A DNA stretch of 64,000 nt, taken from Candidatus Anstonellales archaeon. GTDB lineage: Archaea; Micrarchaeota; Micrarchaeia; Anstonellales; J096. The notes below the pieces were generated by a model, which was not told where the DNA came from, searched no databases, and saw only the letters and a program-made list of their open reading frames with translations. Shown piece after piece: positions 29,952 through 54,036 of the stretch (its first letter is position 1; every line of letters begins with the position of its first letter). The stretch lies in contig JAWAFI010000001.1 in NCBI GenBank assembly GCA_038890615.1, forward strand, positions 98,611 through 162,610, given 5' to 3'. The position numbers and the translations under genes are program-made.

Positions 29952-30236
29952 CTACTCTATGCTTTCCTTGCTGTAGCCATTCTTAACGAGCCACTCCTTT
30001 ACCTTCTCAGCGTGGTTTCCTTGGAGGATTATGCTATTGTCCTTTATTGTACCGCCGCAGGCAAGGTAGTGCTTTAGCTCCTTCATCACCTGCTTAACGC
30101 TGTTCTTCTCAATGCCTTCAACCAGAGTAACGAGCTTTCCGAATTTCGCACGGGAAGTAGAAACCTTGATGCGCCTTGTTTCCTCCTTCTCAAGCGCATC
30201 CCACACGCCCAAATCCTTGAACAGATCCTCCTGCAC
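29952..30236 (-). CDS. Translation initiation factor aIF1 (SUI1 family), GTG start
   Basis: GKLVTLVEG, LKHYLACGGT, LQGNH; SD AGGAGGT upstream of the GTG. Confidence 0.92.
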   Translation of the reverse strand: MQEDLFKDLGVWDALEKEETRRIKVSTSRAKFGKLVTLVEGIEKNSVKQVMKELKHYLACGGTIKDNSIILQGNHAEKVKEWLVKNGYSKESIE

Positions 30237-30300: not shown

Positions 30301-31977
30301 TTAGTTAGCTAAGGGTTGGTTTGTCTGTTGTTGATTTTGTTGATTGTTGGTCTCGCCTTGTTGTGTTTTTGTTTGCTGATCTGCAAGATTGAGCAAAAAT
30401 GCAGGAAGGTTCAGCTTTGATAACAAATTATTCTTACCTCCTTCTTGGTTTGTTTGTGGTTGTGATGAAAGACTTTTGAGATAATCTAACTCCTCTTTTG
30501 TTAGGTTGACATTATCGGCAATTTTGTCGACACTTATGGCTACTTTTATGTAGGCATCCTTCCTAAGGAAGCCGGCCCTTTCAAGCCTTAGGCTGAATAC
30601 AAGCTGGTTCTTTTCTTTATCGTAGGTTGTGCTTAAAAGCTCCACATCCTTTACATTGGAGAACCACTTGTTAGGATCGTTAATGCCTTTTTTGTCTATT
30701 TGGGATATGGTGATTCCTTCTTGTTTATTTTTATATAATTTCTCTAATGATTCAGTAATTTTTTCTTTATTAGTATTATTTTTTTCAGTACCTAGTGATT
30801 CTTTAGTCTTTTTTTCTATCTCATTTAATAAGGAATTATTATTATTGAGTGTTTTTATTAGGAGGTCTTTTACTTGTTCTTTTGTAATTTTTACCTCGTT
30901 AGGTTTTGGTGGTTCTGAAGTTTTTGGTTCTTCTGCTTGTGCAATCAACTTATCAATTTTTTCTTCATCAGGTCTAAGAGAAAACTTTTTTTGCCCTTCT
31001 GTGAAATCAAACCCAAACCTGAATTTTCTTTCTTCCTCTCCTCCTTTTTCCTCTTTTTTTGGCTCCTCTGCAAGCAAAGGAAACTTTTCCTTTGCTTCAT
31101 CAAGCAGCTTTTTCATTCTAGGATTTTTTTCCACCTCTTTTTCAAGGAAAGCAATAAGAGTAAGATTATTATCATTTGCACGTTTATCAAGGAACTTTAT
31201 TAGCATATTGTGGCCCACTTGTCCTTCCCCCCACACTGTAAAGAGGAGGTTGAGCTCTGCCTGGGTCTGTTCTTTGGTAGCTTCAGCTCCAAAGTAATCT
31301 TGGAACGCTGACTTTTGATCTTCAGTTAGTTGTAGTCTTTTTTTGTTATCCTCCATACCATAGAAGTAGTTGCCCTGTCCGCTTGTAACAACGCTTACAA
31401 GCAGCTCTGACCTTGTCATGCCTCCGCGGTATTTTGTTTTAGTTACGTGCTCGTAGTTGCTTTCAATGCTAAACTTGGAAGTTTTGGGGATTAGTTTAGA
31501 TTTATCGGCGTCAGTGGGAGTTGTTGGCTGCTGGATGGATATGTCCTTAGTATCCTCATTTGGCGATTTAGTGCTTGTGGTCTCAGTTTGAGAAGGTTCA
31601 ACAGCAGCAGTGGCTTGTGGATTGCTGTCTTTAATTAAGTACTTGTCTTCTATCTCTTCTATAATACCATCTACATTTATATCTTTACTCTCCTTGTTAG
31701 ATGCATTTATTATCATTCCTTTGAGATCTTCCTTTTTGTCTTCGATGAAAATGGTTGAATTATCTATCTTCTTCAATATATTATCCTTTACGTTCTCTAC
31801 TTTAGCAGAAGCATTTTTAACAGCTTCATTATTCAATGGTTCTATATTCTGTTGAGCAGCAGCTTCATATTTTTTTTCAAAGTCAGCTTTTTTGGACTTG
31901 AGATAGGTCAAATCTTGCCCCAATATGTCAATTGTGTCATATTTATCATTTTTAGCTGATTTATCTCCCTCTCCCAT
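30301..31977 (-). CDS. Hypothetical protein (558 aa; K/E/N/Q-rich, low-complexity segments)
   Basis: Long ORF with its own SD (GAGGGAT) and TATA-like element; AT-rich. Confidence 0.8.
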   Translation of the reverse strand: MGEGDKSAKNDKYDTIDILGQDLTYLKSKKADFEKKYEAAAQQNIEPLNNEAVKNASAKVENVKDNILKKIDNSTIFIEDKKEDLKGMIINASNKESKDINVDGIIEEIEDKYLIKDSNPQATAAVEPSQTETTSTKSPNEDTKDISIQQPTTPTDADKSKLIPKTSKFSIESNYEHVTKTKYRGGMTRSELLVSVVTSGQGNYFYGMEDNKKRLQLTEDQKSAFQDYFGAEATKEQTQAELNLLFTVWGEGQVGHNMLIKFLDKRANDNNLTLIAFLEKEVEKNPRMKKLLDEAKEKFPLLAEEPKKEEKGGEEERKFRFGFDFTEGQKKFSLRPDEEKIDKLIAQAEEPKTSEPPKPNEVKITKEQVKDLLIKTLNNNNSLLNEIEKKTKESLGTEKNNTNKEKITESLEKLYKNKQEGITISQIDKKGINDPNKWFSNVKDVELLSTTYDKEKNQLVFSLRLERAGFLRKDAYIKVAISVDKIADNVNLTKEELDYLKSLSSQPQTNQEGGKNNLLSKLNLPAFLLNLADQQTKTQQGETNNQQNQQQTNQPLAN

Positions 31978-32039
31978 AGTATCCCTCTATATATTTATTA
32001 ACACCAATATATTTAAAAATATACTTTTTTAGAGTAGTG

Positions 32040-35000
32040 CTACCATTTGCCATACAAAAACATATACCGAAGTGCATCCGCTTTATCATATTCGTCCTTT
32101 ATTTCTAGAGCCTCTTTTATCTTTTTTACTTTAGATGGGTCCTTAAGTGCCTCTTCAAGGTTCTTATTTACTTCTCCCTCACTAATACCAAAAGATTTTA
32201 GAATTTTGATTATTTCTTCTTTTTCTGAACTGGTTAAAGTTATCTCTTTAGATTCCTCTGGCCCTTCCGTAGAGCGCCTATACATTGCCCTCTGTTGGGG
32301 TGTTAATACCCCTTCACTTTCTCCTTGAATTCCTGAAAGGTCTGTTGGCCTCCTTCTAATTTCAGCTGGTCTTATATAAGGTTCTCTCCCTAGATGGTTC
32401 AGCACCCTAACCTCCTTCTCTTTGCCCCCTAACTTCAAGCTGTCAGGAAGCATCAAGGAAAGGAAAAGAGCAACTGCATTTTCCTCTTCAGGTCCAAAAG
32501 GAACAACCTTCCACTTGTTCCAATCTGCATCCTTGAGCTTTATTTCTATGGTATTTTGTGAAACAGAGATGGAAAGGAATTCGCTTTCGTATTGAGCAGA
32601 ACCCCCTGCAATCTTGCCAAGCCCCTTAAGCGCATCATCAACTATCAAAGAAGCAGAAAGGGGGGCCTTTTCAGTGAACTGAGTAGAATTCCCATCAGCA
32701 TCTATCTTTCTCCCTTCTATTACTACTTCATCAAGGTAGGGGAACTGGAACTTTAGGGCACGAACAGCATTGATTAATTCTTCCTCATTCTTAAGAGGCT
32801 TAACCCCCTTTTCCTTTTCAGCCCCTGAAACTCCCTCGCTCTTTTTGTCTTCAAGGCGTATGTTCGCAATTTTAAGCACTGCTAAACCTCCGCTTGTGTC
32901 AAGAGAAACCTCTGCCCCTCCGAAGGTCGCTATGTTTGCATTGGATAGGAAGCCCTTTATCTTCTGCTCTTCATCAATGGTGCTTATCATTTTTCCGCGC
33001 TCACCAGATGAAAGCGAAAGAGCTGACAATGAGCCCCAGAGGCCGAAATTGCTAAGGTTTAAGTTCTTGACAATAAGAGGGGACATTGAAAGGTTTTCTG
33101 CTGTAAATGCCAAACCCCTTGGAAGCAGCGCTATTGACCAATCAAATGCTTTTGCACCTGCCTTTAGCAGAATTGGCCACGATGAAACAATGCTGTCCTT
33201 CATCACCCATTCTGCAGTTCCTCTAAGATCTGCAGCGACTTTCCTAAGGTACTTGAATAATGGCTCTTCGGAAAGCTCTAACCATGTTTCGAGCCTCTTT
33301 ATGTTTCTTTCAACTTGTTTTATATATCGATCGAGCTCCTTTATCCTAGCAGATTTTGCTGCCTCAATAGTTTTTTCGCCCTGTTCCTTTGCCTTTAATC
33401 TTTTCTTTAAGTTTGAATATAGGCTCCTAAGAACCCCAAGCCTCTTTTTTAAGTCCCCACTCTTTAATAGCTTAAATATTTCTTGGTCGGTTTGCTGGAA
33501 AAGCTTATTTATTTCTTCAAGCTCTGTTGAAATATCTTTTCCTGCCTCTTTCACCATCCTTAATGTGCTCTCAACATTATCCACTTCGCCCCCTCCTAAA
33601 GGCTGTTCTTCTGCCTTTTCAGGGGAAATCTCCTTGATTTCCTTTTTTGTTTTCTCCACGTTGACCTTTGTTCTTTCAGCTTTATTTCTTAATTCATCTA
33701 ATGGTCCTCTAACTTTTTCTACATTCTCCGGCTTAAGCATTTCCATATCGGCTTGTTTCTTAATGCCCTCGCGCTTTTGTGATTCACGTACTCCATCTAT
33801 CACTTTTTTGCTTATATTCCTTGGAGCTTGACCAATCTTTTTGGCAACCTTTAATGCACCCCCTCCTAAGAAAGTTTCCATAAACTCTTCTTTGGCAGCT
33901 GCCCAAGAAGCTGCTGGGTCTTTTATGTTAAGCTTTGTGGCTGGGCTTGCAACCAGCCTTATGAATGCCCCTGTTGCTGCGAAGAATGCAGCCACTTTCA
34001 GGTGGTCCTTAAGCCCCCTATCAAACTTGCCCTCCTTAAGCATTGTGAGCGCAATTTCTATTTCTTTTGGATCAATTCCAAGCTCTTTTGCAATCCTGTG
34101 CAAAGGTCCGTTTACTCTGCCGTCTATTAAGAACATCCCAAGAAGCTCATTCGCTTCCTTTTTCATTTCCTTATTCACTGGAGCAGGGCTTACTAAATCA
34201 GAACCCCAGGAAAGCAAAAGCCCAGTTATGCCAAATATGGTACCGTACTTAATAAGCTCTGTGAAAGGGGTTGATAGAGTGTAAAGCACAGCAGAGCCAA
34301 CAAGCCTTGGGCTGAGCAATGTTTTGGCAACAGGCCCAACAGCTTTAAAACCACCATAGACCATGGCCGGGGCAAGGGCAGCATTCATTGTGCCTATTGT
34401 TGCCTCAAAAGCCATCCCTTTGTACTCCTCTGCTGCCTTTTGTGCATAAGCCATGAACATCAGCTGGTTGGCAGCAAACATAGATTCAGCCATTGCCATC
34501 TCTTGGATGTTTCCTTGCTTGCTGGCATGCACAAATTTTGAGTACATGGTGGTCATCTGGGTGTATGCATTGTCCATGCCATCTACATATTGCTGGAATC
34601 GGGCTCCTTTGGTGTTCCTATCTGTCACTTTGAATATATTTATGAACCCTCTGGCTGCAGCGCCTATCCCAAATAGCTCAAGAATCTTAGCGGGGTTATT
34701 CCAACTTGTTCTGTCCTCAACTACATTTTCAACACTGCTCCAAAAGTACCTTCCTCTTGAGGATGCTTGGCGCATGTAGCCGTCTATAATTCCAAGCGAA
34801 GGAAGCATATAACCCCATACTTCTTCGAAATAGTTTCCAAGTGATTTCTTCTGCTTTTCTATAAGATCGTCTGCAGTTTTCATATACTTCTTGAAATCTG
34901 AAGTATTAAATGGTCCTTTTGAAGGGCTGTTTTCTATAGCACTAATGAAAAGGCGGGCCTTTATGTAGGCCTCCCCTGCTGAAGAAAAGTAGAGCATGGA

Positions 35001-35237
35001 AGCAATCTCAAGCTTTTTATCTGTGGGCAGTGTATTCCATATTTTATTAAGCTTCTCAAGGATTTGTGGATCGCGCGATAAGCATGTGAAGAATAGATGC
35101 TGTGCATAACTTACATCTTTTTGAATCAAAAGAACATCTATTTTTTGCTTTGAAATACCATCAAGCTTATTCACCATGTCTAAAGCGAACTTAGTCTGAG
35201 GCGACATATCCCTGTTCAATCCCACCTGATACCCCAT
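32040..35237 (-). CDS. Hypothetical protein (1065 aa; internal hydrophobic G/A-rich segments, coiled coil, shared C-terminal domain)
   Basis: Long ORF with SD (GGTGGGA); no N-terminal signal peptide. Confidence 0.85.
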   Translation of the reverse strand: MGYQVGLNRDMSPQTKFALDMVNKLDGISKQKIDVLLIQKDVSYAQHLFFTCLSRDPQILEKLNKIWNTLPTDKKLEIASMLYFSSAGEAYIKARLFISAIENSPSKGPFNTSDFKKYMKTADDLIEKQKKSLGNYFEEVWGYMLPSLGIIDGYMRQASSRGRYFWSSVENVVEDRTSWNNPAKILELFGIGAAARGFINIFKVTDRNTKGARFQQYVDGMDNAYTQMTTMYSKFVHASKQGNIQEMAMAESMFAANQLMFMAYAQKAAEEYKGMAFEATIGTMNAALAPAMVYGGFKAVGPVAKTLLSPRLVGSAVLYTLSTPFTELIKYGTIFGITGLLLSWGSDLVSPAPVNKEMKKEANELLGMFLIDGRVNGPLHRIAKELGIDPKEIEIALTMLKEGKFDRGLKDHLKVAAFFAATGAFIRLVASPATKLNIKDPAASWAAAKEEFMETFLGGGALKVAKKIGQAPRNISKKVIDGVRESQKREGIKKQADMEMLKPENVEKVRGPLDELRNKAERTKVNVEKTKKEIKEISPEKAEEQPLGGGEVDNVESTLRMVKEAGKDISTELEEINKLFQQTDQEIFKLLKSGDLKKRLGVLRSLYSNLKKRLKAKEQGEKTIEAAKSARIKELDRYIKQVERNIKRLETWLELSEEPLFKYLRKVAADLRGTAEWVMKDSIVSSWPILLKAGAKAFDWSIALLPRGLAFTAENLSMSPLIVKNLNLSNFGLWGSLSALSLSSGERGKMISTIDEEQKIKGFLSNANIATFGGAEVSLDTSGGLAVLKIANIRLEDKKSEGVSGAEKEKGVKPLKNEEELINAVRALKFQFPYLDEVVIEGRKIDADGNSTQFTEKAPLSASLIVDDALKGLGKIAGGSAQYESEFLSISVSQNTIEIKLKDADWNKWKVVPFGPEEENAVALFLSLMLPDSLKLGGKEKEVRVLNHLGREPYIRPAEIRRRPTDLSGIQGESEGVLTPQQRAMYRRSTEGPEESKEITLTSSEKEEIIKILKSFGISEGEVNKNLEEALKDPSKVKKIKEALEIKDEYDKADALRYMFLYGKW

Positions 35238-35312
35238 ATTCCCACCGGATATATTTGCTCATCGATGCTTTAAAATATTGATGGTTGGAATGGCTAAGGC
35301 GTTTTGCTGTGT

Positions 35313-36236
35313 TTACTCTATGCCAAGGGTTGCCTTAATACTGAAGAGCTGGGCATTCTTGTCTTTGAATTGAAGGTATTTTTTGAGCGCTTCTTTAGTA
35401 GTTGGATTTTTCATTACCTCTGAAAGCTTTTCATCAAACTCTTTTTCACTAACTCCTGCTCCTATCAAAATGCTTTTTATGTCCTGGTAGATGCGCTCAT
35501 CCTCAGTATAACCCCTTTCAAGGTCTGATATCCCTTGGGGTTTTGGTGAAGGCTGTTCCTCCTTTTTGCCCTTCTCATTTGAGCTCTGTGGGCTCTGCTT
35601 CACTAATGATGGTTTTTGGCGTGGGCCAGGCACGGCATATCCCACTACTTTAGAAGTGAAACCACCACTCAGGCAATACTTTCTAGAATATTCTATAAAT
35701 TCTGATTCTACACTTGAACCCATAATTAATTTCAGTATCTTCTTTCCTGTTTCTATTGGGTGGGTAGCAATCATTGGAGGCACAGCTGCTACTTTGTAAA
35801 TTCTCGCAATTATTTTATCTTTTGGTGTTTTGGCAACCTTATTAAGCTCTTTTATGAAATCATAAGAAACTGGATAGGTAAGTTTTTTATAAAATTCCAC
35901 GAACTTTGGACTCAGCGCAAGCAACGACTTTTCTGCAACAATCTTCTTTGTTCCGGCCTCAACCCCTTCCTCAAGGGCTTTTTTCGCTATTGCCTTGCCT
36001 GCTTCAGAAACACCCTTGCCAACTGTTAACTTGCCAACCACCCCTGCCCCTGTAATGGTTAGGATATCGAACACAAGTGAAGAAGCAGTGAGCACTGCAA
36101 CAACAGAGCCCCATTCCCAGTGGCCGTCCTTGTAAAGAAGGTAGGAATCCTTTCCTAGCCTGTAAGTTCCAATAAAAGGAACGAAGTCAAGCGCAAAGTC
36201 TCCTGCTTCTTTAGCCATTTGCCTAAGAGATGTCAT
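35313..36236 (-). CDS. Hypothetical protein (307 aa; pre-toxin-like hydrophobic N-terminus, shared C-terminal domain)
   Basis: LDFVPFIG followed by a hydrophobic hairpin; C-terminus aligns with the 32040-35237 product. Confidence 0.8.
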   Translation of the reverse strand: MTSLRQMAKEAGDFALDFVPFIGTYRLGKDSYLLYKDGHWEWGSVVAVLTASSLVFDILTITGAGVVGKLTVGKGVSEAGKAIAKKALEEGVEAGTKKIVAEKSLLALSPKFVEFYKKLTYPVSYDFIKELNKVAKTPKDKIIARIYKVAAVPPMIATHPIETGKKILKLIMGSSVESEFIEYSRKYCLSGGFTSKVVGYAVPGPRQKPSLVKQSPQSSNEKGKKEEQPSPKPQGISDLERGYTEDERIYQDIKSILIGAGVSEKEFDEKLSEVMKNPTTKEALKKYLQFKDKNAQLFSIKATLGIE

Positions 36237-36603
36237 GCCAACCCACTCCTATAAGAGCATCTAGGTATTTTGCTGCGTATTCCCTGCCATTGTTTGCATC
36301 AAGCCATGCTTTTATATCCTTAAAGTTCCTGCTAAGCTCAGGGCTTGAATCAATTGCCTCTTTAAGGCCTGGCTTCCTCCCATATAAGTAATATATGATA
36401 ACAGAGTAGTTTGCAAGATGAATTGAAAGCTCAGAAAGGAGCCTCTCTTTCTCCTTTTTGTCCTTCTCAGTATTTATTCTCTCAGAAAGCTCTGGTATGA
36501 AGCCCTTGACAAAAACATCTGAAAAAAGCGCTGGGTAGCTAATGTACTTTTTGGCATCTGCAAAGCTTTTTATTTCTTTTTTTGGGTCTGGAGCTGCGCT
36601 CAT
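36223..36603 (-). CDS. Hypothetical protein (126 aa)
   Basis: Start reset to MSAAPDPKKE with SD GAGGGAT and TATA upstream; overlaps the start of the next gene. Confidence 0.7.
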   Translation of the reverse strand: MSAAPDPKKEIKSFADAKKYISYPALFSDVFVKGFIPELSERINTEKDKKEKERLLSELSIHLANYSVIIYYLYGRKPGLKEAIDSSPELSRNFKDIKAWLDANNGREYAAKYLDALIGVGWHDIS

Positions 36604-36704
36604 TTTTATCCCTCTATTATATACTACCACTAGGGTATTTAAAAAAGTGCTGGAAACAAGCAAAAATCTTTTAATGTTTGGCATGGTGCAAAATAAGGGG
36701 AAGG

Positions 36705-37988
36705 ATGAAGAAGGAGTGTCCGCTGAGGGTTGACGAGAGCAAATGCCTTGCAGAACAAAAATTCCCAGCAATGCCCTGCCTTGAGCCAAGGAATGGGTGC
36801 TTTGATGAAGAGCTTAAATACGGGCTCAATGCAATAAGCCTTTCTGCAGGAGAATTCATAGAGCACTCTATAATAAGGCTAAGGGAAAAAGGCATTGCCC
36901 TTGATGCTGAAAAGGAGGAATTTGTTAGGGAGGTGCTTAAGCAGGAGATAATGATAGGAATAAGGGAGCTCTGCGAAGTGCCCAAGATCATAAAGAAAGG
37001 GGAGAAAGACATAGAACAAGGCAAGAAAACTATAGATGGGCTTGCTTTTGTTTACTTTATAAAGGCAAAGGAAGAGCTGGAGAAAGTGCAGGTAAGCAGC
37101 AAATGCGCAACAGCTTTGGCATTGATGAGCGTTGCCCCTGAGATGAAGCTTTATACAGTGCCAGGCCATCAGATAAGGACAGCAGAATTGATGGAATATA
37201 TAAAGGAGAAAACAAACATTGACTTCGCATTCCCAGGCCTGATGGTTATGCATGATTTCGGGAAAGCTGCATTCAACTCATGGAACCTTAAAGGAAGCAA
37301 GGATTCAATCATAGAATATATAGTGGATGAACATGAGAGGAGAAACACAGGGGATGAAAGCATAAATGTAGGCATAAAGGTGCTTATTGCAGAGGGGCAC
37401 GCATGCTTCTGCCACGAACTAATGCAGGCAATGAAAATGATGTGCCTCCATAAAGAAAGCCACAATTACACGCTAACAGAAGACATATTCAGGAAGGTGC
37501 TTGACCACCACCCTTACACCTATTATGGGGTTGACCCAAGGATAAAATCAATGACCCTTCTGGCTGATTACCTTGATGGAGTAATGTCTTTCAGGGAGTA
37601 TGCGATGAGGAGGTTTGAGACGCCTGAGCAGGTGAGGGCAAGGATAAAGGGGGCATTCTTTATTGACAACCCTTACAGGGAATTCGGGAAGGCAGCCGGC
37701 TACACTGAATTGGAGGCAGCAAAGCTCATATTCGGCTTCGTTGAGCGCATGTATGGAAAATACATGAGGGAGCTATTCGGAGAAGACTATTTTACATTCC
37801 CAAAGCTCAATGAAAGGGCACTTGAGCAGGTGTGGAAGGATTTGGAGATATTCAGAAGCATAAACATGCTTAACAAATACATGAAGGTGATGGTTGAAAC
37901 TCACTTAGTAGCAACCAAGAGGGAAAGGAAATATACTGCATATGGGATTGGGCATGTTTTGAGGGAAGCGAGGGAAAGGATCAAATAG
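36705..37988 (+). CDS. HD-domain (HD-GYP-like) protein with an uncharacterised N-terminus
   Basis: GHQ..., MHDFGK, EGH, DHH, LADYLDGVMSFREY motifs in HD-GYP order. Confidence 0.65.
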   Translation: MKKECPLRVDESKCLAEQKFPAMPCLEPRNGCFDEELKYGLNAISLSAGEFIEHSIIRLREKGIALDAEKEEFVREVLKQEIMIGIRELCEVPKIIKKGEKDIEQGKKTIDGLAFVYFIKAKEELEKVQVSSKCATALALMSVAPEMKLYTVPGHQIRTAELMEYIKEKTNIDFAFPGLMVMHDFGKAAFNSWNLKGSKDSIIEYIVDEHERRNTGDESINVGIKVLIAEGHACFCHELMQAMKMMCLHKESHNYTLTEDIFRKVLDHHPYTYYGVDPRIKSMTLLADYLDGVMSFREYAMRRFETPEQVRARIKGAFFIDNPYREFGKAAGYTELEAAKLIFGFVERMYGKYMRELFGEDYFTFPKLNERALEQVWKDLEIFRSINMLNKYMKVMVETHLVATKRERKYTAYGIGHVLREARERIK

Positions 37989-38043: not shown

Positions 38044-38117
38044 GCCTCGGTAGCTCAGCCAGGTAGAGCGTCTGCCTGTTAAGCAGAGGGCCGGCGGTTC
38101 AAATCCGCCCCGGGGCG
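38044..38117 (+). tRNA. tRNA-Asn(GTT)
   Basis: GCCTCGG/CCGGGGC acceptor stem, TCTGC-CT-GTT-AA-GCAGA anticodon arm, GGTTCAAATCC. Confidence 0.95.
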
Positions 38118-38119
38118 CT

Positions 38120-38902
38120 ATGCAAAAGGAAAAAAAAGAAGAAAATAGGAAAGTGGTTGCAAGAGCAATTGGCAGGAGCGAAAGCGAGGAGAGATCATGG
38201 AAGGCGCTGGAAAGGTTTAGGGATGAAGGCAAAGAGAATAGGATAAAAAAGATAAGGGCCATAGGCAACAGGCCAAAGGGGAATGATGAAGAAATTTTCA
38301 TATTGGTTGAAGGGATTAGGAATGAGGATTTGGAGGTTAGGGTAAATTCCGCATGGGCCCTGTCAAAGGTTGCAGAGGAAGGGCATGACATATCAATGGC
38401 ATTTGGCTATCTTAAGAAGGAGCTAAGCTCAGAAGACAATATGCTCAAGGAATACGCGATATCAGCATTGTCAGTGGCTGCATGGCAGGGTGCTGATGTA
38501 AGCTTTGCTAAGGATGAGATTGTCAAGCTCCTTTCGCACGAGCAGCCCTCAATAAGGATGAAGGCCCTATCCGCTGTGCTTTACAATGCGCACGAAGGAA
38601 AGGATGTTTCTTATGCGTATAAGGAAATCGCAAAACTGCTTGCAGATGAATACCCTATTATAAGGTCAACTGCATTGAAAGCCATAAAGAAGGCAACAGA
38701 GAACTGCCCAGAGGAGCATCAAGAAGAGCTTGAGAGGCTGCTCCTGGATGTGTTATATAGCAATGCTTTTGACAGCATAGAGCCTCATGAAAGGGCAAAC
38801 TTAGAGGAAGAGCTAAGGAAAGTTATAGAGAGCATAGGCTCGTACAATGAATTTGAAGCCAGGAAAAAGGAGGAAAAGGGTGAAGAGCGCACAATAAACT
38901 GA
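38120..38902 (+). CDS. HEAT-repeat protein
   Basis: Repeats EDLEVRVNSAWAL, EDNMLKEYAISAL, EQPSIRMKALSAV, EYPIIRSTALKAI. Confidence 0.8.
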   Translation: MQKEKKEENRKVVARAIGRSESEERSWKALERFRDEGKENRIKKIRAIGNRPKGNDEEIFILVEGIRNEDLEVRVNSAWALSKVAEEGHDISMAFGYLKKELSSEDNMLKEYAISALSVAAWQGADVSFAKDEIVKLLSHEQPSIRMKALSAVLYNAHEGKDVSYAYKEIAKLLADEYPIIRSTALKAIKKATENCPEEHQEELERLLLDVLYSNAFDSIEPHERANLEEELRKVIESIGSYNEFEARKKEEKGEERTIN

Positions 38903-38904
38903 AA

Positions 38905-39747
38905 TTATGAAGAAAGCAACGCTGCTTTTGAGCTAACCTCCATCTCAAAAAGCATCTTCCTAAGGACTCCCTTAGGGTCAATAAATGATTCGCTAAGAGA
39001 AGAAATGTAAATGCTGAAAGGCAATGTAAAGGCAGCTGATGGGAGCCAGGAGAATGTTGCGAGCGCAAACACAGAGAATGAAATGCTCATTGCAGCCCAT
39101 GATGCCATTCCCAATCTCATAGCTTTCTTATGCTCTATGTAATAATCTACTTCCCTGCGAAGCTTGTCGCACTCAAGGATTATAGAGCACCAGTCAAAGG
39201 AGGTGTTTGGCATTATTGACCTTTCTTGTGATGAAGCAAAAAGCGGGCTTTTTAAGTCAATTATCCTTTGAAAAGCAAGGTCATTGATGGAGAGGGAAGC
39301 AAGGAATTCCTTGAAAGTAAAAAGCTTCCTATAAGAAATGTTGAAGAGCAAGGTTTCGTAGCGCGAGATGGCTACTAAATCAGGGCCATAGAAGGTGGCG
39401 CCAATCTCCTCCTTTATCTTCTTAAATGATTCCAAAACTTCAAGAAAACTGGGGGAGAAATTGGAATATATTAGCGCTGCCCTTTCCCCAAAAAGCGCCT
39501 GCTCGTATGCCTCCCTTGCAAGGGCCCTTGACCCTGTGTAAAGGGCGCCGTAGCATTTGTGGCCGCACCTATCTGCCTCAACCTTGAACCTGTCAAACTC
39601 CTTTAGCTCAGCCCTTCTCCCTATCCAATCCTTTAAGCCAGCATCAATAAAGCTTTTCCCAAAGTAAGGGCTTATGCACCTTGAGTAAGCAAATAAGAGC
39701 GGGTATTCCTTTTCTCTGCTTTTCCTAGTGGAATATGCGAAATCCAT
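38905..39747 (-). CDS. Hypothetical protein with C-terminal TM hairpin
   Basis: 280-aa ORF with a hydrophobic C-terminal segment and TATA upstream. Confidence 0.65.
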   Translation of the reverse strand: MDFAYSTRKSREKEYPLLFAYSRCISPYFGKSFIDAGLKDWIGRRAELKEFDRFKVEADRCGHKCYGALYTGSRALAREAYEQALFGERAALIYSNFSPSFLEVLESFKKIKEEIGATFYGPDLVAISRYETLLFNISYRKLFTFKEFLASLSINDLAFQRIIDLKSPLFASSQERSIMPNTSFDWCSIILECDKLRREVDYYIEHKKAMRLGMASWAAMSISFSVFALATFSWLPSAAFTLPFSIYISSLSESFIDPKGVLRKMLFEMEVSSKAALLSS

Positions 39748-39820
39748 TAATTTATATAAGTTAAGACAATTTAAAAAGGTTGCTAAATAAGATTAAAAAT
39801 AAAGCGTGATAAAGCTATTT

Positions 39821-40342
39821 ATGAAGAAGCAGAAGTACAAAAGCGAAGAACCTTATGCTAGGAAAATGATTAAGGGCAGCTTGCTGGTGGAAGAGCGCAA
39901 AAGAGGTTTGATAGAAGCAGTCAAAGAAGGGAATTATGAAAGATGCGAAAAGCTCCTTTCAAAAGGCGCAGACCCAAACAAGCTGAGCAATGGGCTGAGC
40001 CCGCTTATGGCTGCAGCAATTAAAGGAGATACAAAAATAGGCAAGCTCTTATTGAAGCACAATGCAGATGTGGATTTGATAGGGAAGGATAGAAACACAG
40101 CAATGCACTATGCAGCCCAGCATAAGCACTGGAGGTTCCTTGAGATGCTCCTAAAAACTACCCCATTCCCAGACCCAAGAATCAAAAACAAGGAAGGAAA
40201 GGATGTTTTGGCAATAGCAAAGGAGAATGGTGCACCTGAAAAGGTTATAAAGAAAATAGGCCATATAGAGTCATGTGCAAGATTAAGAGAGGTTAATAGA
40301 ATATATATGTATAAATGGATTGAAAAAATACTGAGCGGATGA
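39821..40342 (+). CDS. Short ankyrin-repeat protein
   Basis: LIEAVKEGN..LLSKGADPN, SPLMAAAIKG, TAMHYAAQ; start reset to the ATG ~27 nt after ATTAAAAA. Confidence 0.9.
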   Translation: MKKQKYKSEEPYARKMIKGSLLVEERKRGLIEAVKEGNYERCEKLLSKGADPNKLSNGLSPLMAAAIKGDTKIGKLLLKHNADVDLIGKDRNTAMHYAAQHKHWRFLEMLLKTTPFPDPRIKNKEGKDVLAIAKENGAPEKVIKKIGHIESCARLREVNRIYMYKWIEKILSG

Positions 40343-47188: not shown

Positions 47189-47713
47189 TTATTGCGATGA
47201 GGAAGATACAGTGGAGACCACTGTTGCGATTGCTTCCCTGTCAACGTTTGCTATGTCCTCCTCATACTGGTACCAAAGCACTAAGCTCCCCTTGAACTGC
47301 TGGTTTAGAGAGCCAGTCACATCATTACCAGATGAATCCTTGCATACAATGTTTATGAAGTCCTTGTAATCGCCGTTGCTTATCTGCACAGAAACAGGGT
47401 CAGCATGCTCCTTCTTGATCCCCCCTCCTTGGGAGGTTGTGCATAGGATCCTGTTCACCTCTATGGTCCTGCCAAGCTTGTTCCAAACCCTTGCTGAAAT
47501 GTGGACAACCTTGTCTGCATCAGCTGTGGCTGTTGGGGGCGGGTCGCTGCACAACAGGCCCGGCTGCTGGAAGGTGCAGGTTTCAGGAAGCTTGAATGGA
47601 TTCAGCAGAAGAAGAGCGCCTATAACTATCAGAATAGCCAAAAGGGCCCATCCATATGTCATCAAATATTCCATTGCGGCCTGTCCTTTCATGTTTCTCA
47701 TTTTCTTCACCAC
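47189..47713 (-). CDS. Type IV pilin-like protein (class III signal peptide)
   Basis: KGQ/AAMEYLMTYGWALL prepilin cleavage motif followed by a hydrophobic helix. Confidence 0.88.
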   Translation of the reverse strand: MVKKMRNMKGQAAMEYLMTYGWALLAILIVIGALLLLNPFKLPETCTFQQPGLLCSDPPPTATADADKVVHISARVWNKLGRTIEVNRILCTTSQGGGIKKEHADPVSVQISNGDYKDFINIVCKDSSGNDVTGSLNQQFKGSLVLWYQYEEDIANVDREAIATVVSTVSSSSQ

Positions 47714-47714
47714 C

Positions 47715-48776
47715 TTATATGAGTAGGTTTTGGAAGAAACTATTTAAAATTGTTATGAGGCCCAGGAAAACCAGCATAGCCCCAAGGAAAATGGCAACAA
47801 AGAACTTTGCCCCGTCCTGCCATCTTCCCTTCCCCACAATCCCAACCGTAAGAGAAGATGTAAGGGAAGTAACAAGAATCATTGCCAATGCAAAGAAGAA
47901 GAAATCCCCAGAAGTGATTGAAGGGCCAAGTGGCACAAAAGGCACTGCAGATGATGATGCGCTTATTGCGCTCACATCTATCTGCGCAAAAACCTTTTCA
48001 AGCATTTGGAGAAGCTTGTACGAAACTGATAAGAGGAAAGGAGCCCCAACCATTCCCCCAAACACTATGAATATCTGGTAGAAAAGGAGCGAAGCCTTTA
48101 TGTCGTTCTTCACTATTTCCCTTTCCCTTGCGTCTTCTGCAATCTTGTCTATTGCGTCAGCAACGCTTCCTCCTGTTGCCACTGCTTGCTTTATTATCTT
48201 CATTGCCCTCTTTATAAGAGGGGAGTCAAACGTTTCTGAAAGCCTGTCAAGCGCTTGGTGTATTGTTGAGCCGCTCAAAGATGAGCTTATTGCAACATGC
48301 ACTACTGCTGAAAGCTCACCGAACTCTGGTTTAGCAGCTTGTATCATTGCCTGCTCAACATTCATCCCTGCCCTCATGTTTGCTGAAACCAGGTTTAAGT
48401 AGTCAGGGAAAACCTTCTCAACCTTGTCTGTTATGGCGTCCTTGCGCAAGGCCAAGTAGGCCATCACGAAGAACGCCCATGAGGTGGCTGAGATGATCAG
48501 CCCAACCAAGTAGAAAAGGATGAAAAGGATGAAGTAATGGCCAAAAGAAAACGGCCTAAGGAAAGCCACTATGGGGTCAATTAGTTGGATCATTGTCCCA
48601 ACAAGCAAGGTAAGAAGAAGCACCATTACTGTTGAAAAGCCAAGGAAACGCTCTCCTGTGCTCAGAACCCCTGCTGCGCTTAGCTCCTTTTCAACTGTCT
48701 TTGCGTTTTCCCTTGAGTATAGCATTCCAATAGATTCAAAAAAATCAGGGTTTCTTGTTGCTGCCATAAGCATCAC
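47715..48776 (-). CDS. TadC/T2SS-F family pilus platform protein
   Basis: FPDYL..VSANMRAGM, EFGELS, ATGG.VAD; multiple TMs. Confidence 0.88.
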   Translation of the reverse strand: MMLMAATRNPDFFESIGMLYSRENAKTVEKELSAAGVLSTGERFLGFSTVMVLLLTLLVGTMIQLIDPIVAFLRPFSFGHYFILFILFYLVGLIISATSWAFFVMAYLALRKDAITDKVEKVFPDYLNLVSANMRAGMNVEQAMIQAAKPEFGELSAVVHVAISSSLSGSTIHQALDRLSETFDSPLIKRAMKIIKQAVATGGSVADAIDKIAEDAREREIVKNDIKASLLFYQIFIVFGGMVGAPFLLSVSYKLLQMLEKVFAQIDVSAISASSSAVPFVPLGPSITSGDFFFFALAMILVTSLTSSLTVGIVGKGRWQDGAKFFVAIFLGAMLVFLGLITILNSFFQNLLI

Positions 48777-49649
48777 CTATATCTGGTACCTCGGCCTCAT
48801 GCCATTAGCCACTGCCACGAAGAGAAGTTGTATCAGCACTATTAGTATGAGGAAGGGCCAAAGCATTGCTGAGCTGAACCCAGTGCTTCCATTGCTCATT
48901 ACTGACATTATTATGATGCTGAACGCTATCAAAAGAGGAGGGAACACTATTCCGAAAATCAAGTAGAAAAGTATGAGTGGGTTGAGCTTCTGGCCATAGG
49001 ATTTGAGCTCTATTATCTGCTCTCTTGCAAGCTGCTCAACAACTGCCTCAAGCGAATCTGCAAGGTTTGCACCAGAGGCAACTGAGTTTGCAACCTGCAG
49101 GAGCACGCGCTTTGCTGCTTGCGAGGGGCAGTGGGCTATTGCCTGCCTGAATGCCTGCGATGTGGGCGTGCCTGTCATCATTGAGTCAACTATGCCCTTG
49201 AATAGGTTGCTGACCTCCCCATAGCCCTCAGTCACTCCTACAAGGGCATCGAAAAGGCTCATGCCTGAGCGAAGCGATATGATTATATGGCGGCACGCAA
49301 AAACAAGCTGCTCATCTATCTTCTTTGAGCGCACTATTATTGCAAAATCAGGGTACACCTTGAAATAAAGGAAGAACAATATCAAGAAAATCGGTAGGAA
49401 AAGAAGCAGCCATACCAAATCTATGTAAGGGAAGAAGAGCACTATGCTGACAAGCCAGAAGAAGAGCGTGTAAATCACTATGTTCCTGCCTATCTCTCCA
49501 ACAAAAACATAGGGAGATTTGTCTATGCCAGCAAGGCGCATCTTTTCTTTCACTCCAGGAAAATAAGGCATGAGCATTTCTCCAACAGGGTCTGTCTCTT
49601 CTGGTACTTCTACTTGAGTGCTAACGAAGCTGCTTACCTTCTTTGACAT
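48777..49649 (-). CDS. TadB/C T2SS-F family pilus platform protein
   Basis: SGMSLFDAL, YGEVS, SGANL, YGQKLNPL; start reset to MSKKV. Confidence 0.88.
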   Translation of the reverse strand: MSKKVSSFVSTQVEVPEETDPVGEMLMPYFPGVKEKMRLAGIDKSPYVFVGEIGRNIVIYTLFFWLVSIVLFFPYIDLVWLLLFLPIFLILFFLYFKVYPDFAIIVRSKKIDEQLVFACRHIIISLRSGMSLFDALVGVTEGYGEVSNLFKGIVDSMMTGTPTSQAFRQAIAHCPSQAAKRVLLQVANSVASGANLADSLEAVVEQLAREQIIELKSYGQKLNPLILFYLIFGIVFPPLLIAFSIIIMSVMSNGSTGFSSAMLWPFLILIVLIQLLFVAVANGMRPRYQI

Positions 49650-49732
49650 CAGAACACACCTTAAATCTATGGGTGCAAACATCTTAAAAAGGTTTGCCTG
49701 GGCATTTTTATGCTCTATAAGCAAACTAAGCT

Positions 49733-50785
49733 TTAGAACATTCCTCTTGAGCGCTCATCCCCCCTTTCCTTAAGGGAGGTGACAAAATCACCAAATGTGT
49801 TCTTGTAGCGCATGATCGCTGTTTCTTGGGAATCGAGCGCACCATCTATGCCATACTTTTCCTTTGCTATCCTGGTTTCATTGAAGTGATGCACTGTGAA
49901 ATAGTTGCCTGAGGCCTCTGCCACTTTGCTTATTTCAGAAATCAGCGCCAACAGGTTGTTTTGGAACTCGCGCCTTACCGAAAGCACATCTGAATCTGAA
50001 AGCGCCCTTGTGAGCGTTTCCTTTGTCTGCCTGACAAGCTCACCATGGTTGCGCTCAAATTCCTTCTCTATTGAGTTAAGCGCATTGTTTATCTCAAAAT
50101 TCTGGTGTGAGATCAGCAGGGCAGGAAGGTTGGTCTTCGCTGTCCCGCCAGCAAGTATGTTCTTGAGCGCAACAATCTCTGCCTTTATGCGCTCCCTTTC
50201 AGCAGTATCCTTTGTCTTGAAGAGCTGCTTGGTGTAATCAAACATCTTTTTCTTTATATCGCTCTCGTCAACCTTCATCTTTGCTTTGGAGTAAATCTCC
50301 TTTATATGCTCCTCAGCCCTCGCTTCTGGGTTGGAAAGGTCAATAGGGAAGATTATGTTGGGCGAGAAATTTATGGTAAGATGTACTTGCGCCTTTGGTT
50401 CCTCTTTTGGCCTCTGTGGCTCTGGCATTTTTATCTCTTGAGGTGCCTCAAAATCTGGCCTTTCTGCTGTTTTTTCCTCTTTAACCTCTGGCTTCTTTAC
50501 TTCCTCTTTCTTCTCAATCTCTTTCTTTTCAAAGGTTTCCTTCATCTTTTCCTCAAGCTTCTTTGTAGCCTCAACGCTGACCTTCTCCTGCTTTATGCCA
50601 AAGCGCTTCTTTATCTCCTGCACTTTCTTTATCTTTGAATAATTAGCAAATATCTCTTCAAGGTTTGATTCGCTGGCCTTTATTATGGGCTCAATCCTTT
50701 CTGATTCGCTGAATCCTGGCTTGCTGTAAGGAAGCCTGTTCTTGGAAATGGAATTGTATAATTTTAGTAACGATTCGTAGTTCAT
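49733..50785 (-). CDS. Hypothetical protein in the pilus operon
   Basis: Co-oriented ORF directly after the ATPase; helical, with an E/K/P-rich linker. Confidence 0.75.
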   Translation of the reverse strand: MNYESLLKLYNSISKNRLPYSKPGFSESERIEPIIKASESNLEEIFANYSKIKKVQEIKKRFGIKQEKVSVEATKKLEEKMKETFEKKEIEKKEEVKKPEVKEEKTAERPDFEAPQEIKMPEPQRPKEEPKAQVHLTINFSPNIIFPIDLSNPEARAEEHIKEIYSKAKMKVDESDIKKKMFDYTKQLFKTKDTAERERIKAEIVALKNILAGGTAKTNLPALLISHQNFEINNALNSIEKEFERNHGELVRQTKETLTRALSDSDVLSVRREFQNNLLALISEISKVAEASGNYFTVHHFNETRIAKEKYGIDGALDSQETAIMRYKNTFGDFVTSLKERGDERSRGMF

Positions 50786-50786
50786 G

Positions 50787-52277
50787 CTATAGGTCAAAGG
50801 GCTTGTCTTTCACAACGAGTGAAATCACTTCGTCAGGGTTCTTGTAGTAATGGTTGACTATCCTTCCAACTTCATCAACGCCAAGGTAGTTGTTCTTAAT
50901 CATCCATTCCAGCATTGCAACCCTTTCATCTATGTTTGAGTCTATTTCCTTTTCACTCATCCCTGTGTAGAGGCCAAGCTGCTCATAGATGCGCATCGGC
51001 TTTGCCAGCTCCTTTATCTTGTCATCTTTCACGCTCCATGCATGGGTAATGACTGCTTCGTTGGTGCTCGTTATCTCAGCAAACTCTATGGTGCGCCTTA
51101 TGTTCATCCTCCTGTGGCGGAACTGCACCACTATCCCGCTCACTGATGAAAGCATCTCTGGAGGTATGTTTATCGGAGGGTTTGTTATGCGGGATATTGC
51201 CTCGCGCGTGTTGTCAGCGTGCACTGTTGAGTAGACGCTGTGGCCTGTGTGCATTGCTTCAAAGAGTATTTCTGCTTCTCTTTGCTTCCTTATTTCCCCA
51301 ACCACTATCCTGTCAGGCCTCATCCTAAGCGAATTCACAAGAAGGTCAAGCATAGTCACTTCGCCTTTGCCTTCAGGATTCGGCTCCCTTGTGACCATTG
51401 GAATCCACTGGAGGAATGATGGCAGTGTAAGCTCTCTCGTATCCTCTATGGTTATTATCCTTTGGGTTGATGGGATGAGGGAAGTGATTGCATTTAGGAA
51501 GGAGGTTTTGCCGCTTCCTGTGCCCCCTGCAACAATCAGGGAAAGCTCGTTGTGCACTGCCATCCATATAAGGCTTGCAAGCCTCAGGTTGATCGTTTTG
51601 TTGAGCACAAGCACTGGAAGCGTCCATGGGTTCTTGGAGAACTTCCTTATTGTTATTGTTGTGCCCCTGTTGGAGATTGGGAACAGGGAAGCGTTAACAC
51701 GCTCACCTGTAGGTAGGTGTGCGTCAAGAAGGGGGTTAAGCACATTTATCTGCCTGCCTATGCGCCTTGCTATAGTGCTAGCCATGTCTTGTATCTGCTC
51801 ATCGGTGTTGAACTTGATGTTGGTATTGCACCACCCGAACTCCTTGTGGTAGACCTTTACTGGCTCGCCTGGGCCATTAACCCCTATTTCCTCAAGATGC
51901 TCATCGTGGAGCAATGGCTCAAGCTGGCCCATTCCGAGCGTGTTCTGTATAAGGTAAGAAACAAGGACTCCTTCTTCCTCTTCGCTAAGCTTGAATGTCT
52001 TGTGGACTAGCTCTTTTGCTGCTTCTGTGAATCGCTTCCTAACTGCTGCTGCGCTCCTTATGTCAAGTATCTCAGCAATGTCAAGCTTTACCTCCTTTAT
52101 AAGCTCTGACTTAAGCTGGTTTGTAAGGATTACTCTAGTGCCTGGGGCAATCCCTGGTATTGATATCTCGTAAATAGGCAGGAATTCGTCCCTATCCTCT
52201 ATAGTTATTTCTATTGGCATCCCTTCGCTGTTAACCTGGTATTTTGCAAGCCTCACCGGCTTTTTTGGCTGTTTCAT
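50787..52277 (-). CDS. Pilus assembly ATPase (TadA/VirB11 family)
   Basis: GGTGSGKT, IEDTREL, LRMRPDRIVVGEIR, AMHTGH..TVHA. Confidence 0.93.
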   Translation of the reverse strand: MKQPKKPVRLAKYQVNSEGMPIEITIEDRDEFLPIYEISIPGIAPGTRVILTNQLKSELIKEVKLDIAEILDIRSAAAVRKRFTEAAKELVHKTFKLSEEEEGVLVSYLIQNTLGMGQLEPLLHDEHLEEIGVNGPGEPVKVYHKEFGWCNTNIKFNTDEQIQDMASTIARRIGRQINVLNPLLDAHLPTGERVNASLFPISNRGTTITIRKFSKNPWTLPVLVLNKTINLRLASLIWMAVHNELSLIVAGGTGSGKTSFLNAITSLIPSTQRIITIEDTRELTLPSFLQWIPMVTREPNPEGKGEVTMLDLLVNSLRMRPDRIVVGEIRKQREAEILFEAMHTGHSVYSTVHADNTREAISRITNPPINIPPEMLSSVSGIVVQFRHRRMNIRRTIEFAEITSTNEAVITHAWSVKDDKIKELAKPMRIYEQLGLYTGMSEKEIDSNIDERVAMLEWMIKNNYLGVDEVGRIVNHYYKNPDEVISLVVKDKPFDL

Positions 52278-52286
52278 AATTCGCAC

Positions 52287-53984
52287 CTATTTTTCTTCAT
52301 CCTTATTTTCTTCCCAAACCTTTTTAATTAGTTTCCTTAGGCGGTTGCGCTTCTCCTCAATGCTCTCTGACTTTGCCTCTGCCTCTTTCACATCAGAAGA
52401 GAGCTGGATAAGGTCCTGGGAAGAGGTTATGCTTATGAGCTTTGCCTGCTGGGCAAGCAGCTTCAGCTGCTTGTTAAGATTGACCGCCTCAACCCTAAGT
52501 GAATCAAGCTCCTCGCTTGCCTTTTTTACTTCTGCCATTTTTTCAAGCAAATCCTCAGTTTCTGAGATGACTTCGCTTGCATCAAGAGCCTCAAGCTCCT
52601 TGCGCACCTCAACGAACTTCTGGTCAACCTTGGCCTCCTCTGCCTCTATCTCGCTTTCTAGTATTGAATATTCCTCGCCAAGGCGCTCGAGCTGGTCAAG
52701 GTAATTCTGGATTGATTGAAGGGTTTTCTCCTTTATGCGCTGGAAGGTAGAATAGTTTGCCATCTCCTCATCAAGGGTTGCAAGTATCGTGCCTGATTCA
52801 GTGGCAAGCCTATTGCGCTCCTCCTCAATCTTCTCCCTTACATCAGAGAGCTCAGAGATAACTGCTTCAATATCCCCGAATCCTTTTGAGGCCTCCTCTG
52901 CTGCCTTCCTTGCCCTCTCAACCTCAAGCCTGAGCCTTGAGGAATCCTCTTTCAAAGATTTCACCTCGGAAAGGAGGTTATCAATAGTGGCAAACTTAGA
53001 CATTACTTCGCGTGCAAGGTCCAAGTAATCGTCTATCTGCTTCAGCGCGCTCTTCTGCTCAGTTATCTCCTTATTTATCCCGGAAATCCTTGAGGAAAGC
53101 TCTGAAGCCTGCTTCTCAACGCTTTCTATCTCTTTTATGGTGCCCTTTATCCTTTTTTCGTATTCCTCAAGGCCTGTGCTGCTTGACTTTATGGCTTCAA
53201 CAGCGCCTTTCACGCTTGCAACAATCTCTGAAATCCCCTCAAGGCGCTTAAGTATATGGTCTGATTTGCGCTGATACTCTTCTATGCTCCCTACCTCAAC
53301 AGCTGGGGAGGCCCTCTGCAAATTTTTCACAACCTCATCGCTTCTCTGCTTCAAGCTCTCCAACTGGAGGTTAAGCTCTGCTATCTTTTCCTTTGAGGAT
53401 TCCACCGTGCGCAACCTATCCTCAACACCTTCCTGCCCAAGCTGCTCCTTAACGCGCTTCAACTGGGTAGTTAGAAGGTTTATGGCGTCCCTGATCTCTG
53501 AAACCCGCGCCCTGAAGTTCTCTGCCTTGTCAACAAGCGAGTAATATTTCCTCTCCTTATCTCCTTGCGCTTCGCGTATCTGCTCAACCTTTTTTGTAAG
53601 CGCATCGACCTTTGGCTGTATTGATGAAAGAACCCTGTCAAACTCCTGCCTTAGCTTCTCCAGCTCCTTCTCCTCCCTTTCTGCATGCGACCCGATTGCC
53701 TCTATTGAGCGAACTATCTCTTCTTTCTTTTCCTTGAACTTGTCTATCTCTTTTTCAACCTCTTCCTTGGACTTTGTAACCCATACAAGGAAGACCTTCC
53801 CAAGCCTGTACTCTATCTTTAGTATTCCTTCCTGCTCAAGTATGTTTGCCCACTCCTCAATATTGTTTGGCGAGATGTTGAGAAGCTTTGAGGAGCTCTC
53901 TATGTCTATCCTTCCCTTTTCCTTGACAAGTTTTATGAGCCTGTCTACGCCTGTTGTGATAAGGAGCTCATCAAAGTTATCCAT
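52287..53984 (-). CDS. Winged-helix + long coiled-coil protein
   Basis: TTGVDRLIKLV...IEEWANILEQEGILKIEY followed by ~480 aa of heptad-rich helix; start reset to MDNFDE. Confidence 0.8.
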   Translation of the reverse strand: MDNFDELLITTGVDRLIKLVKEKGRIDIESSSKLLNISPNNIEEWANILEQEGILKIEYRLGKVFLVWVTKSKEEVEKEIDKFKEKKEEIVRSIEAIGSHAEREEKELEKLRQEFDRVLSSIQPKVDALTKKVEQIREAQGDKERKYYSLVDKAENFRARVSEIRDAINLLTTQLKRVKEQLGQEGVEDRLRTVESSKEKIAELNLQLESLKQRSDEVVKNLQRASPAVEVGSIEEYQRKSDHILKRLEGISEIVASVKGAVEAIKSSSTGLEEYEKRIKGTIKEIESVEKQASELSSRISGINKEITEQKSALKQIDDYLDLAREVMSKFATIDNLLSEVKSLKEDSSRLRLEVERARKAAEEASKGFGDIEAVISELSDVREKIEEERNRLATESGTILATLDEEMANYSTFQRIKEKTLQSIQNYLDQLERLGEEYSILESEIEAEEAKVDQKFVEVRKELEALDASEVISETEDLLEKMAEVKKASEELDSLRVEAVNLNKQLKLLAQQAKLISITSSQDLIQLSSDVKEAEAKSESIEEKRNRLRKLIKKVWEENKDEEK

Positions 53985-54036
53985 ACAGAGATATAGTAAA
54001 ATGATACCTATTAAAAAGTATCTTTCATTAGGAATA

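Follow-up and report, generated by a model that had tools for sequence, protein, structure and literature searches.

Type III translocon operons combine a class II chaperone with translocators (SycD/LcrH-YopB-YopD, SicA-SipBCDA and IpgC-IpaBCDA), and a conserved small helical protein encoded ahead of hydrophobic-hairpin proteins is the arrangement of chaperone-translocator operons. We describe here an island of four genes, A to D, that recalls this arrangement in an archaeon. It lies in a 64,000-nucleotide stretch (the window; positions 98,611 to 162,610 of contig JAWAFI010000001.1, assembly GCA_038890615.1) from Candidatus Anstonellales archaeon, whose genome (G000) is 846 kb in size and 94% complete. 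The island is best explained as a single copy of a cassette that occurs patchily in Micrarchaeota, an undescribed gene system whose mechanism we infer from gene arrangement and predicted structure. An initial annotation had read the four genes as a chaperone or immunity protein followed by translocator- or effector-like proteins that leave the cell by a non-Sec route; what it had observed is confirmed, and its interpretation is partly supported and is extended below.

Few candidate genes bear on two open questions about DPANN archaea: by what means they make a channel into their hosts, and whether some of them live on bacteria. The DPANN symbiont ARM-1 is described in PMC11329633 with a nanotube attributed to the host and a 21-nm barrel-like docking platform in the envelope. 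As proposed predatory genes, TlyC-like toxins and murein transglycosylases are given for Woesearchaeota in PMC9723730, and peptidoglycan hydrolases for Nanoarchaeota in PMC12352652. The cassette supplies testable parts for these questions: a marker gene of 126 amino acids (aa), a conserved hairpin, a five-residue tag and a predicted archaeal barrel of the outer-membrane type.

Gene A and the cassette in relatives

Gene A heads the island. Among 200 relatives, 17 have a match to it (in 16 cases at E ≤ 1e-10); no strong match was seen among 18 genomes of the same family. The A profile was positive in 13 of 401 genomes of the phylum, the own genome included, and it retrieved 65 clusters with a sharp cut-off from a library of 1.84 billion proteins. 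The relatives' proteins are 24-38% identical to the window's A, and the named homologues are labelled Micrarchaeota or Anstonellaceae, with one genome labelled 'Parvarchaeota'. A related-locus search queried with A returned nothing.

For a comparison of neighbourhoods, 19 A loci were fetched. In 17 of them A is immediately followed by a run of large co-oriented orphan genes, and of the other two, one is cut off by the end of its contig, where a tagged start codon (see below) sits just behind A, and one has no cassette. The window's B alone matches the gene directly behind A in four relatives (G039, G148, G111 and G053). When a profile of the N-terminal hairpin domain of B was run against the first gene of the 17 loci, 11 were detected at E < 0.001, of which 8 had served as seeds and 3 were independent, and one further gene at E 0.005; two more were joined through long pairwise homology, leaving 3 of 17 unplaced. 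Synteny in the relatives thus shows a conserved unit, with A directly upstream of a B-type hairpin gene. Two findings that would have told against the initial annotation, a housekeeping or viral family and genes unlinked in relatives, were looked for and did not appear. As for all four genes forming one unit, this holds for A and the B-type genes, but D is without a credible homologue and C has only one.

The first cassette genes encode 250-1160 aa, and beyond the hairpin domain of ~90 residues, with its signature F-x-P-x-x-G-T...D-x-Y...D-G...S-x-x-x-D, they are mostly unalignable. In B this domain is followed by a basic Gly/Ala/Lys-rich middle, a linker and a C-terminal helical domain, and the protein has a single moderately hydrophobic segment at residues 45-63 (Kyte-Doolittle value 1.89). 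A word-index search with the hairpin, which is insensitive, found 4 proteins, all previously collected, and neither the A nor the hairpin profile gave anything significant against PDB sequences. Gene C encodes a helical N-terminal domain, a Gly/Ala-rich hydrophobic cluster, a charged helical stretch and a C-terminal module. Three charge-free stretches lie within the cluster and one more at residues 413-433, and the first segment of the cluster aligns with a Gly/Ala-rich segment of the single homologue of C, which is found in G133 (residues 58-300, E 9e-14). The insensitive word-index search returned only C itself, and the ESM Atlas gave nothing usable for it. The hydrophobic hairpins that the initial annotation placed in two proteins are present as segments in B and C, but they are marginal as transmembrane helices.

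B and C also share a C-terminal domain, as initially proposed. Residues 251-293 of B and 1007-1049 of C are 35% identical (score 76) and are reciprocal best matches among 723 tails of the genome's own open reading frames (ORFs), a score reached by 0 of 2000 shuffles. The G148 cassette resembles that of the window in that two of its genes, the first and the third, have a C-terminal domain in common (E 2e-18) and the barrel gene described below is absent; the cassette of G039 contains three hairpin genes. A single C-terminal module running through all cassettes was considered. A leave-one-out test placed 5 of 7 tails chosen by hand at rank 1-2 of 604 but those of B and C at ranks 102 and 65, and the module was therefore not extended to the window. 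Gene D had no credible homologue in 200 genomes (4 weak matches, E ≥ 0.001), and its orthology with the relatives' second genes, which have a helical domain in common, was rejected at E 0.89. Its position suggests that D may be a member of the cassette.

A model of A built from 78 sequences confidently predicts seven helices (predicted local distance difference test score, pLDDT, 83), including long ones of 17 and 25 residues, and the conserved residues are mostly aromatic (F27, Y66, Y71, Y74, N93 and F94). Foldseek returned 0 matches to this fold at E ≤ 0.001, nothing was significant in the VIA comparison (best Z 5.4), no tetratricopeptide repeat (TPR) match was found in Pfam, and class II chaperones were missing from the top fold matches, although A may still belong to that class. 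Given that A is conserved and the bodies of its partners are mostly unalignable, the pattern is that expected of a chaperone for a common motif; by analogy, A would be a cytoplasmic chaperone for the hairpin of B. Of the two roles first offered for A, that of a chaperone fits its place before hairpin genes, but that of an immunity protein is disfavoured by the contrast between a conserved A and the unrelated C-termini of its neighbours.

Two cassette proteins gave weak peptidoglycan-binding matches (E 5e-4 and 4e-3), both below the cut-off. Housekeeping genes flank the fetched loci, and the cassettes of genus g19 occupy a fixed site beside cysS. At that site an orphan of ~190-250 aa without a family match (L042:9082-9642 and its g19 equivalents) is divergent from A.

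The N-terminal tag and the predicted barrel

In relatives, an MF[LI]FQ-type sequence opens 22 of the 51 proteins in rows counted as cassette genes (one of these rows actually held a gene from the flank), compared with 1 of 158 other ORFs. The codons of this tag vary synonymously and a Shine-Dalgarno-like sequence mostly lies upstream, which marks it as a protein motif; a DNA promoter motif was rejected because of the synonymous variation. We inspected 20 tag sites outside cassettes. Long orphan ORFs begin at 7 of 7 sites in G079, which is A-positive; in the two genomes where A was not found, the figures are 3 of 9 (G098) and 0 of 4 (G137). By eye, the tagged G079 orphans include hairpin-bearing, TPR-like and strand-ended proteins. 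Genome-wide, 332 tag sites occur in 128 of 201 genomes, 68 of them in the 18 strong-A genomes and 264 in the other 183; since many sites in the 183 are not gene starts, this tally is no clean test. Presence on a dispersed set of orphans is the behaviour expected of an export signal, and these sequence patterns suggest that the tag is a candidate non-Sec export signal across Micrarchaeota. The relatives' tag likewise suggests that non-Sec export, as initially proposed for the island, is favoured. The five residues could be used to list candidate exported proteins genome by genome.

The tagged orphans outside the cassette are L068-L074 in G079 and L076, L081 and L082 in G098. By eye, L074 has a transglutaminase-like Cys/His/Asp arrangement, L072 a translocator-like hairpin, L070 a barrel-like end and L068 TPR-like repeats.

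In nine A loci the last gene encodes a protein of 760-1620 aa whose N-terminal half is helical, while its C-terminal half is beta-rich, Gly/aromatic-rich and closes on an aromatic strand. Among the other loci, the contig ends first in 6, and the G039 run closes with a second A where its contig stops. A model of the last gene of G079 (12 sequences) predicts at least 14 consecutive strands at residues 600-827, with pLDDT mostly 55-70. In VIA, all of its top 50 matches were outer-membrane or mitochondrial barrels, with CdiB, FhaC, OccD/K and TonB-dependent barrel-type chains filling the top places; the best match had Z 12.3 and a root-mean-square deviation (rmsd) of 9.2 Å over 254 aligned residues. 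An aromatic C-terminal pattern resembling a beta-signal, crude and post hoc, was fitted by 11 of 14 barrel-like proteins and by 25 of 605 ORFs of the own genome, C being among the 25; a crude strand-count score failed to separate barrels from background. The insensitive word-index search with a relative's barrel returned only the query. The model predicts that the last gene encodes an outer-membrane-type beta-barrel, the class but not the family being supported. Omp85/BamA (PF01103) was detected in 0 of 5 cassette genomes, and the control was positive in 7 of 14.

Barrel-like orphans also occur elsewhere in the source genome. One of 1288 aa (L058; C1:392851-396717, minus strand) has a helical N-terminal half and a beta-rich C-terminal half ending in an aromatic strand; a 561-aa orphan follows it (C1:391156-392841, minus strand), and its N-terminal ~55 residues are nearly identical in the orphan at C1:399264-400460. 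In the ESM Atlas its language-model features matched unnamed clusters at 0.90-0.91 and, as a lead only, one with 22% Porin_4 at 0.86, pointing weakly to bacterial and porin-like clusters. Another, of 1033 aa (L059; C4:14309-17410, plus strand), has a strand-rich, aromatic-ended C-terminus and sits between two secreted-looking genes, beside the RNA polymerase operon.

The island in the window and its surroundings

The four ORFs are real, co-oriented minus-strand frames of 126 (A, counted from the ATG), 307, 1065 and 558 aa, and, as first noted, A overlaps the start of B, by 14 nucleotides (nt). Pfam, NCBIfam and PHROG gave no significant match for any of them, in line with the earlier failure to recognise a described system. 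By hydropathy, which was the sole method applied, none of the window proteins has the N-terminal hydrophobic h-region of a signal peptide, consistent with the absence of a Sec signal reported before. The G+C content at third codon positions (GC3) of A, B, C and D is 0.40, 0.38, 0.40 and 0.33, against a genome mean of 0.48 (standard deviation 0.06, 723 ORFs). Positions are collected in Table 1.

Table 1. Genes and elements of the island, with positions in the window
Feature	Position	Strand	Basis
Gene A, 126 aa, first gene of the cassette, conserved and all-helical, putative dedicated chaperone	36223..36603	-	homologues and fold model
Gene B, 307 aa, putative translocator-like protein	35313..36236	-	matches behind A in relatives, profiles
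B hairpin domain, ~residues 8-95, common to the first gene after A in relatives	35952..36215	-	alignment, profile searches
B C-terminal helical module (251-293), paralogous to C tail	35358..35486	-	pairwise comparison
Gene C, 1065 aa, putative large translocator- or pore-former-like protein	32040..35237	-	one homologue, hydropathy
C hydrophobic cluster, residues 279-346	34200..34403	-	hydropathy
C C-terminal module (1007-1049), paralogous to B tail	32091..32219	-	pairwise comparison
Gene D, 558 aa, acidic, low-complexity linkers, without hydrophobic segment	30301..31977	-	position only
ATAGAGGGATA, Shine-Dalgarno-like element ahead of A	36607..36617	-	motif count in genome
Second ATAGAGGGATA copy, ahead of D	31980..31990	-	motif count in genome
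aIF1/SUI1, start of ribosomal operon half, outside the cassette	29952..30236 (= C1:128562-128846)	-	neighbour via inversion

Separate promoter-like elements precede A, C and D. The initial annotation had regarded these as similar TATA/Shine-Dalgarno cassettes, and the 11-mer ATAGAGGGATA does precede both A and D and has 3 copies in the whole genome. Its core GAGGGATA, however, is a common Shine-Dalgarno-like word with 46 copies in the genome, and comparable TATA-like tracts also lie 5' of aIF1 and of another orphan gene; a cassette-specific promoter is therefore not established.

The island had been placed at a break in the ribosomal superoperon, and aIF1 indeed lacks rpl29-rps3-rpl22 upstream; in relatives, rps3 is immediately upstream of aIF1 in 26 of 29 loci. 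The three genes are, however, intact on the plus strand at C1:19930-21274, 107 kb away from aIF1. The segment C1:21281-128846 is an apparent 107-kb inversion separating rpl29 from aIF1, and on the simplest reading the break is the end of this single inversion, adjoining D. Insertion of the island in place of rpl29-rps3-rpl22 was rejected, since those genes are intact elsewhere and an inversion suffices. Because one inversion accounts for the split superoperon, the ribosomal neighbourhood is uninformative about the island, whose location there looks incidental.

On the other side of the island, a 436-aa Cys-rich orphan with an HD-like motif seen by eye (36678-37988, plus strand) is divergent from A; it matches no family, and the fetched loci contain no homologue of it. 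A tRNA-Asn and then HEAT-repeat, orphan membrane and ankyrin-repeat genes follow (38044-40342).

Further along the window (47189-55434) lies a type IV pilus/archaellum-like cluster whose members, named by eye, are a class III pilin, two TadC-like membrane proteins, a VirB11-like ATPase, a long coiled-coil protein and an acidic repeat protein. This cluster is a candidate export route. Beside it (55436-57391, minus strand) is a 651-aa helical-repeat orphan of lower GC and without a signal peptide. TraG-like ATPases matched in 5 of 5 genomes tested, weakly so in the source genome, and the type III export gate SctV/FlhA (FHIPEP, PF00771) had 0 candidates there, with the control positive in 4 of 14 genomes. 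G079, with six copies, and G085 carry large PrgI-VirB4-like fusion ATPases (L125-L128) near VirB6-like and pilin-like genes; no cassette was found at these loci, and a tagged hairpin gene is nearby in 1 of 4.

Proposed function, alternatives and described systems

Starting from the gene linkage, the conserved A, the conserved hairpin on hypervariable bodies, the tag and the B/C tail, we propose that the cassette is a contact-dependent kit for breaching membranes, a reading to which we give about an even chance. A small helical protein before a marginally hydrophobic hairpin on variable, signal-less bodies follows the logic of a chaperone-translocator operon. A would hold the hairpin of B, and perhaps that of C, soluble in the cytoplasm; B and C would be exported through a pathway other than Sec and would enter a host or prey membrane, giving a pore or docking conduit; and D could be a soluble accessory or cargo. 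The large barrel encoded in the relatives' operons would span the outer membrane of the target. Since no Omp85/BamA was detected in five cassette genomes, a diderm target with its own folding machinery would be the likeliest site for it. A wider and distinctly tentative proposal is that Micrarchaeota have a delivery system of their own, sequence-unrelated to bacterial ones, in which a chaperone, hairpin translocators, a dispersed set of effectors with MF[LI]FQ as export tag and a giant barrel in a Gram-negative outer membrane would serve parasites or predators of bacteria. If true, an outer-membrane-type barrel would be unexpected in archaea and would indicate a double-membraned partner.

Several observations weigh against the membrane-breaching reading. 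The hydrophobic segments of B and C, being marginal as transmembrane helices, may be buried helices, and in the Foldseek and VIA comparisons A is unlike any known secretion chaperone. The linkage of A to the cassette is not absolute: A occurs without a cassette in G117 (C15), G113 has three large genes and no A, and neither the C homologue nor two weak B-like genes (genus g15) have an adjacent A. The window's cassette contains no barrel gene, and its B, C and D carry no tag; the tag is not confined to genomes with A, as the G098 sites above show, and both the tag and the beta-signal patterns were defined after the sequences had been inspected. The barrel model concerns a relative's protein and is of low confidence (mean pLDDT 42.8, predicted template-modelling score 0.33), its VIA matches have rmsd of 4-18 Å, and the product of one barrel gene (L038) starts with a Sec-like signal. 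Comparing the source genome's own barrel-like orphans with the cassette barrels gave no match in hmmsearch and a probability of 0.4% in hhalign; most cassette barrels likewise fail to detect one another. Finally, no export machine is linked to the cassette.

That Sec-like signal, together with the large, structural-looking proteins and their fixed order, would also suit a structure in the archaeon's own envelope, such as an attachment organelle, a docking platform or a conduit through a second membrane, with A as assembly factor. The 21-nm docking complex in the ARM-1 envelope, as given in PMC11329633, offers a precedent, and a double membrane was once proposed for Micrarchaeota according to 10.1101/2021.04.28.441871; the same source, however, describes a cultivated strain with an S-layer over a single membrane. 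The failure to find Omp85 in the cassette genomes also argues against an own-envelope structure, and the patchy distribution and hypervariability of the cassette are unlike those of a core envelope machine, so that we consider this possible but doubtful. Viewed instead as a polymorphic toxin locus, the B-type genes would encode toxins with a membrane-crossing N-terminal domain, and A an immunity protein or Eag-like chaperone. The B-type hairpin presumably resembles those of pre-toxin TG (PT-TG) or prePAAR proteins, and a conserved hairpin on variable bodies, the three hairpin genes of G039, the low GC3 and the 14-nt overlap of A and B all agree with such a locus. We nevertheless judge it unlikely: the 41 cassette proteins of relatives contained 0 toxin domains in Pfam, although unfamiliar toxin folds are possible, and 0 of 11 hairpin members matched PT-TG or prePAAR (E ≤ 1), nor was there a match to PDB sequences. 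Moreover, one conserved A faces unrelated C-termini, small downstream immunity genes are absent, with no small genes between the large ORFs in most loci, and the partner genes belong to fixed classes instead of forming a toxin array.

It would be very unlikely, in our estimate, that A and B are a conserved intracellular pair and that C and D are unrelated, lineage-specific orphans alongside. The lack of a homologue for D, the C homologue without an adjacent A and the separate promoter-like elements of A, C and D speak for such a pair, but the tail of C is paralogous to that of B, the first and third genes of G148 share a C-terminal domain, and the same 11-mer precedes A and D. DNA-ejection, pilot and tape-measure proteins of viruses are likewise Gly/Ala-rich, helical, signal-less and fast-evolving, and the cassette could in that respect be a remnant or domesticated virus module carrying such proteins and a small chaperone. 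Such an origin appears most improbable, as 0 of 8 proteins tested matched PHROG, the flanks are housekeeping genes with the g19 cassette fixed beside cysS, and barrels with beta-signal-like ends are atypical of virions.

The membrane-breaching reading can be set against described systems; in membership tests the cassette fell outside the type III, two-partner and toxin systems. DPANN host-contact structures share its ecological setting, and the accounts cited above name, in the portions available, no comparable gene cassette. The main text of PMC12892359, on Micrarchaeota genomics, does not mention secretion, barrel, toxin or pore, and a literature search without supplements and subscription papers gave no description of the cassette, the tag or Micrarchaeota barrel genes. 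The cassette resembles two-partner and contact-dependent inhibition systems and porins (CdiB, FhaC, OccD/K and TonB-dependent barrels) in the predicted barrel class and the aromatic C-terminal strand. It differs from them in having no Omp85 match, a large N-terminal helical region, mostly no Sec signal, no filamentous haemagglutinin partner and an archaeal producer. With Eag chaperones and their prePAAR/transmembrane-domain effectors of the type VI secretion system, and with PT-TG toxins, it shares a chaperone-like gene before a conserved hairpin with variable bodies. Eag chaperones have an alpha/beta DcrB-like fold, however, whereas A is predicted to be all-helical, and no PAAR, Rhs, PT-TG or toxin domain was found in the cassette proteins scanned.

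A last comparison is with type III translocon operons. Neither B and C (in Pfam and NCBIfam) nor the 41 cassette proteins of relatives showed similarity to SctE/SctB translocators, A has no TPR-chaperone match, the FHIPEP gate was not found in the genome, the producer is archaeal, and the operon can include a barrel gene. The order of parts is nevertheless alike: a small helical gene comes first, signal-less proteins with marginally hydrophobic Gly/Ala-rich hairpins follow, soluble variable proteins come last, and the relatives carry an uncleaved N-terminal tag. By this analogy, the cassette would function in the manner of a type III translocon operon, though it is not itself one.

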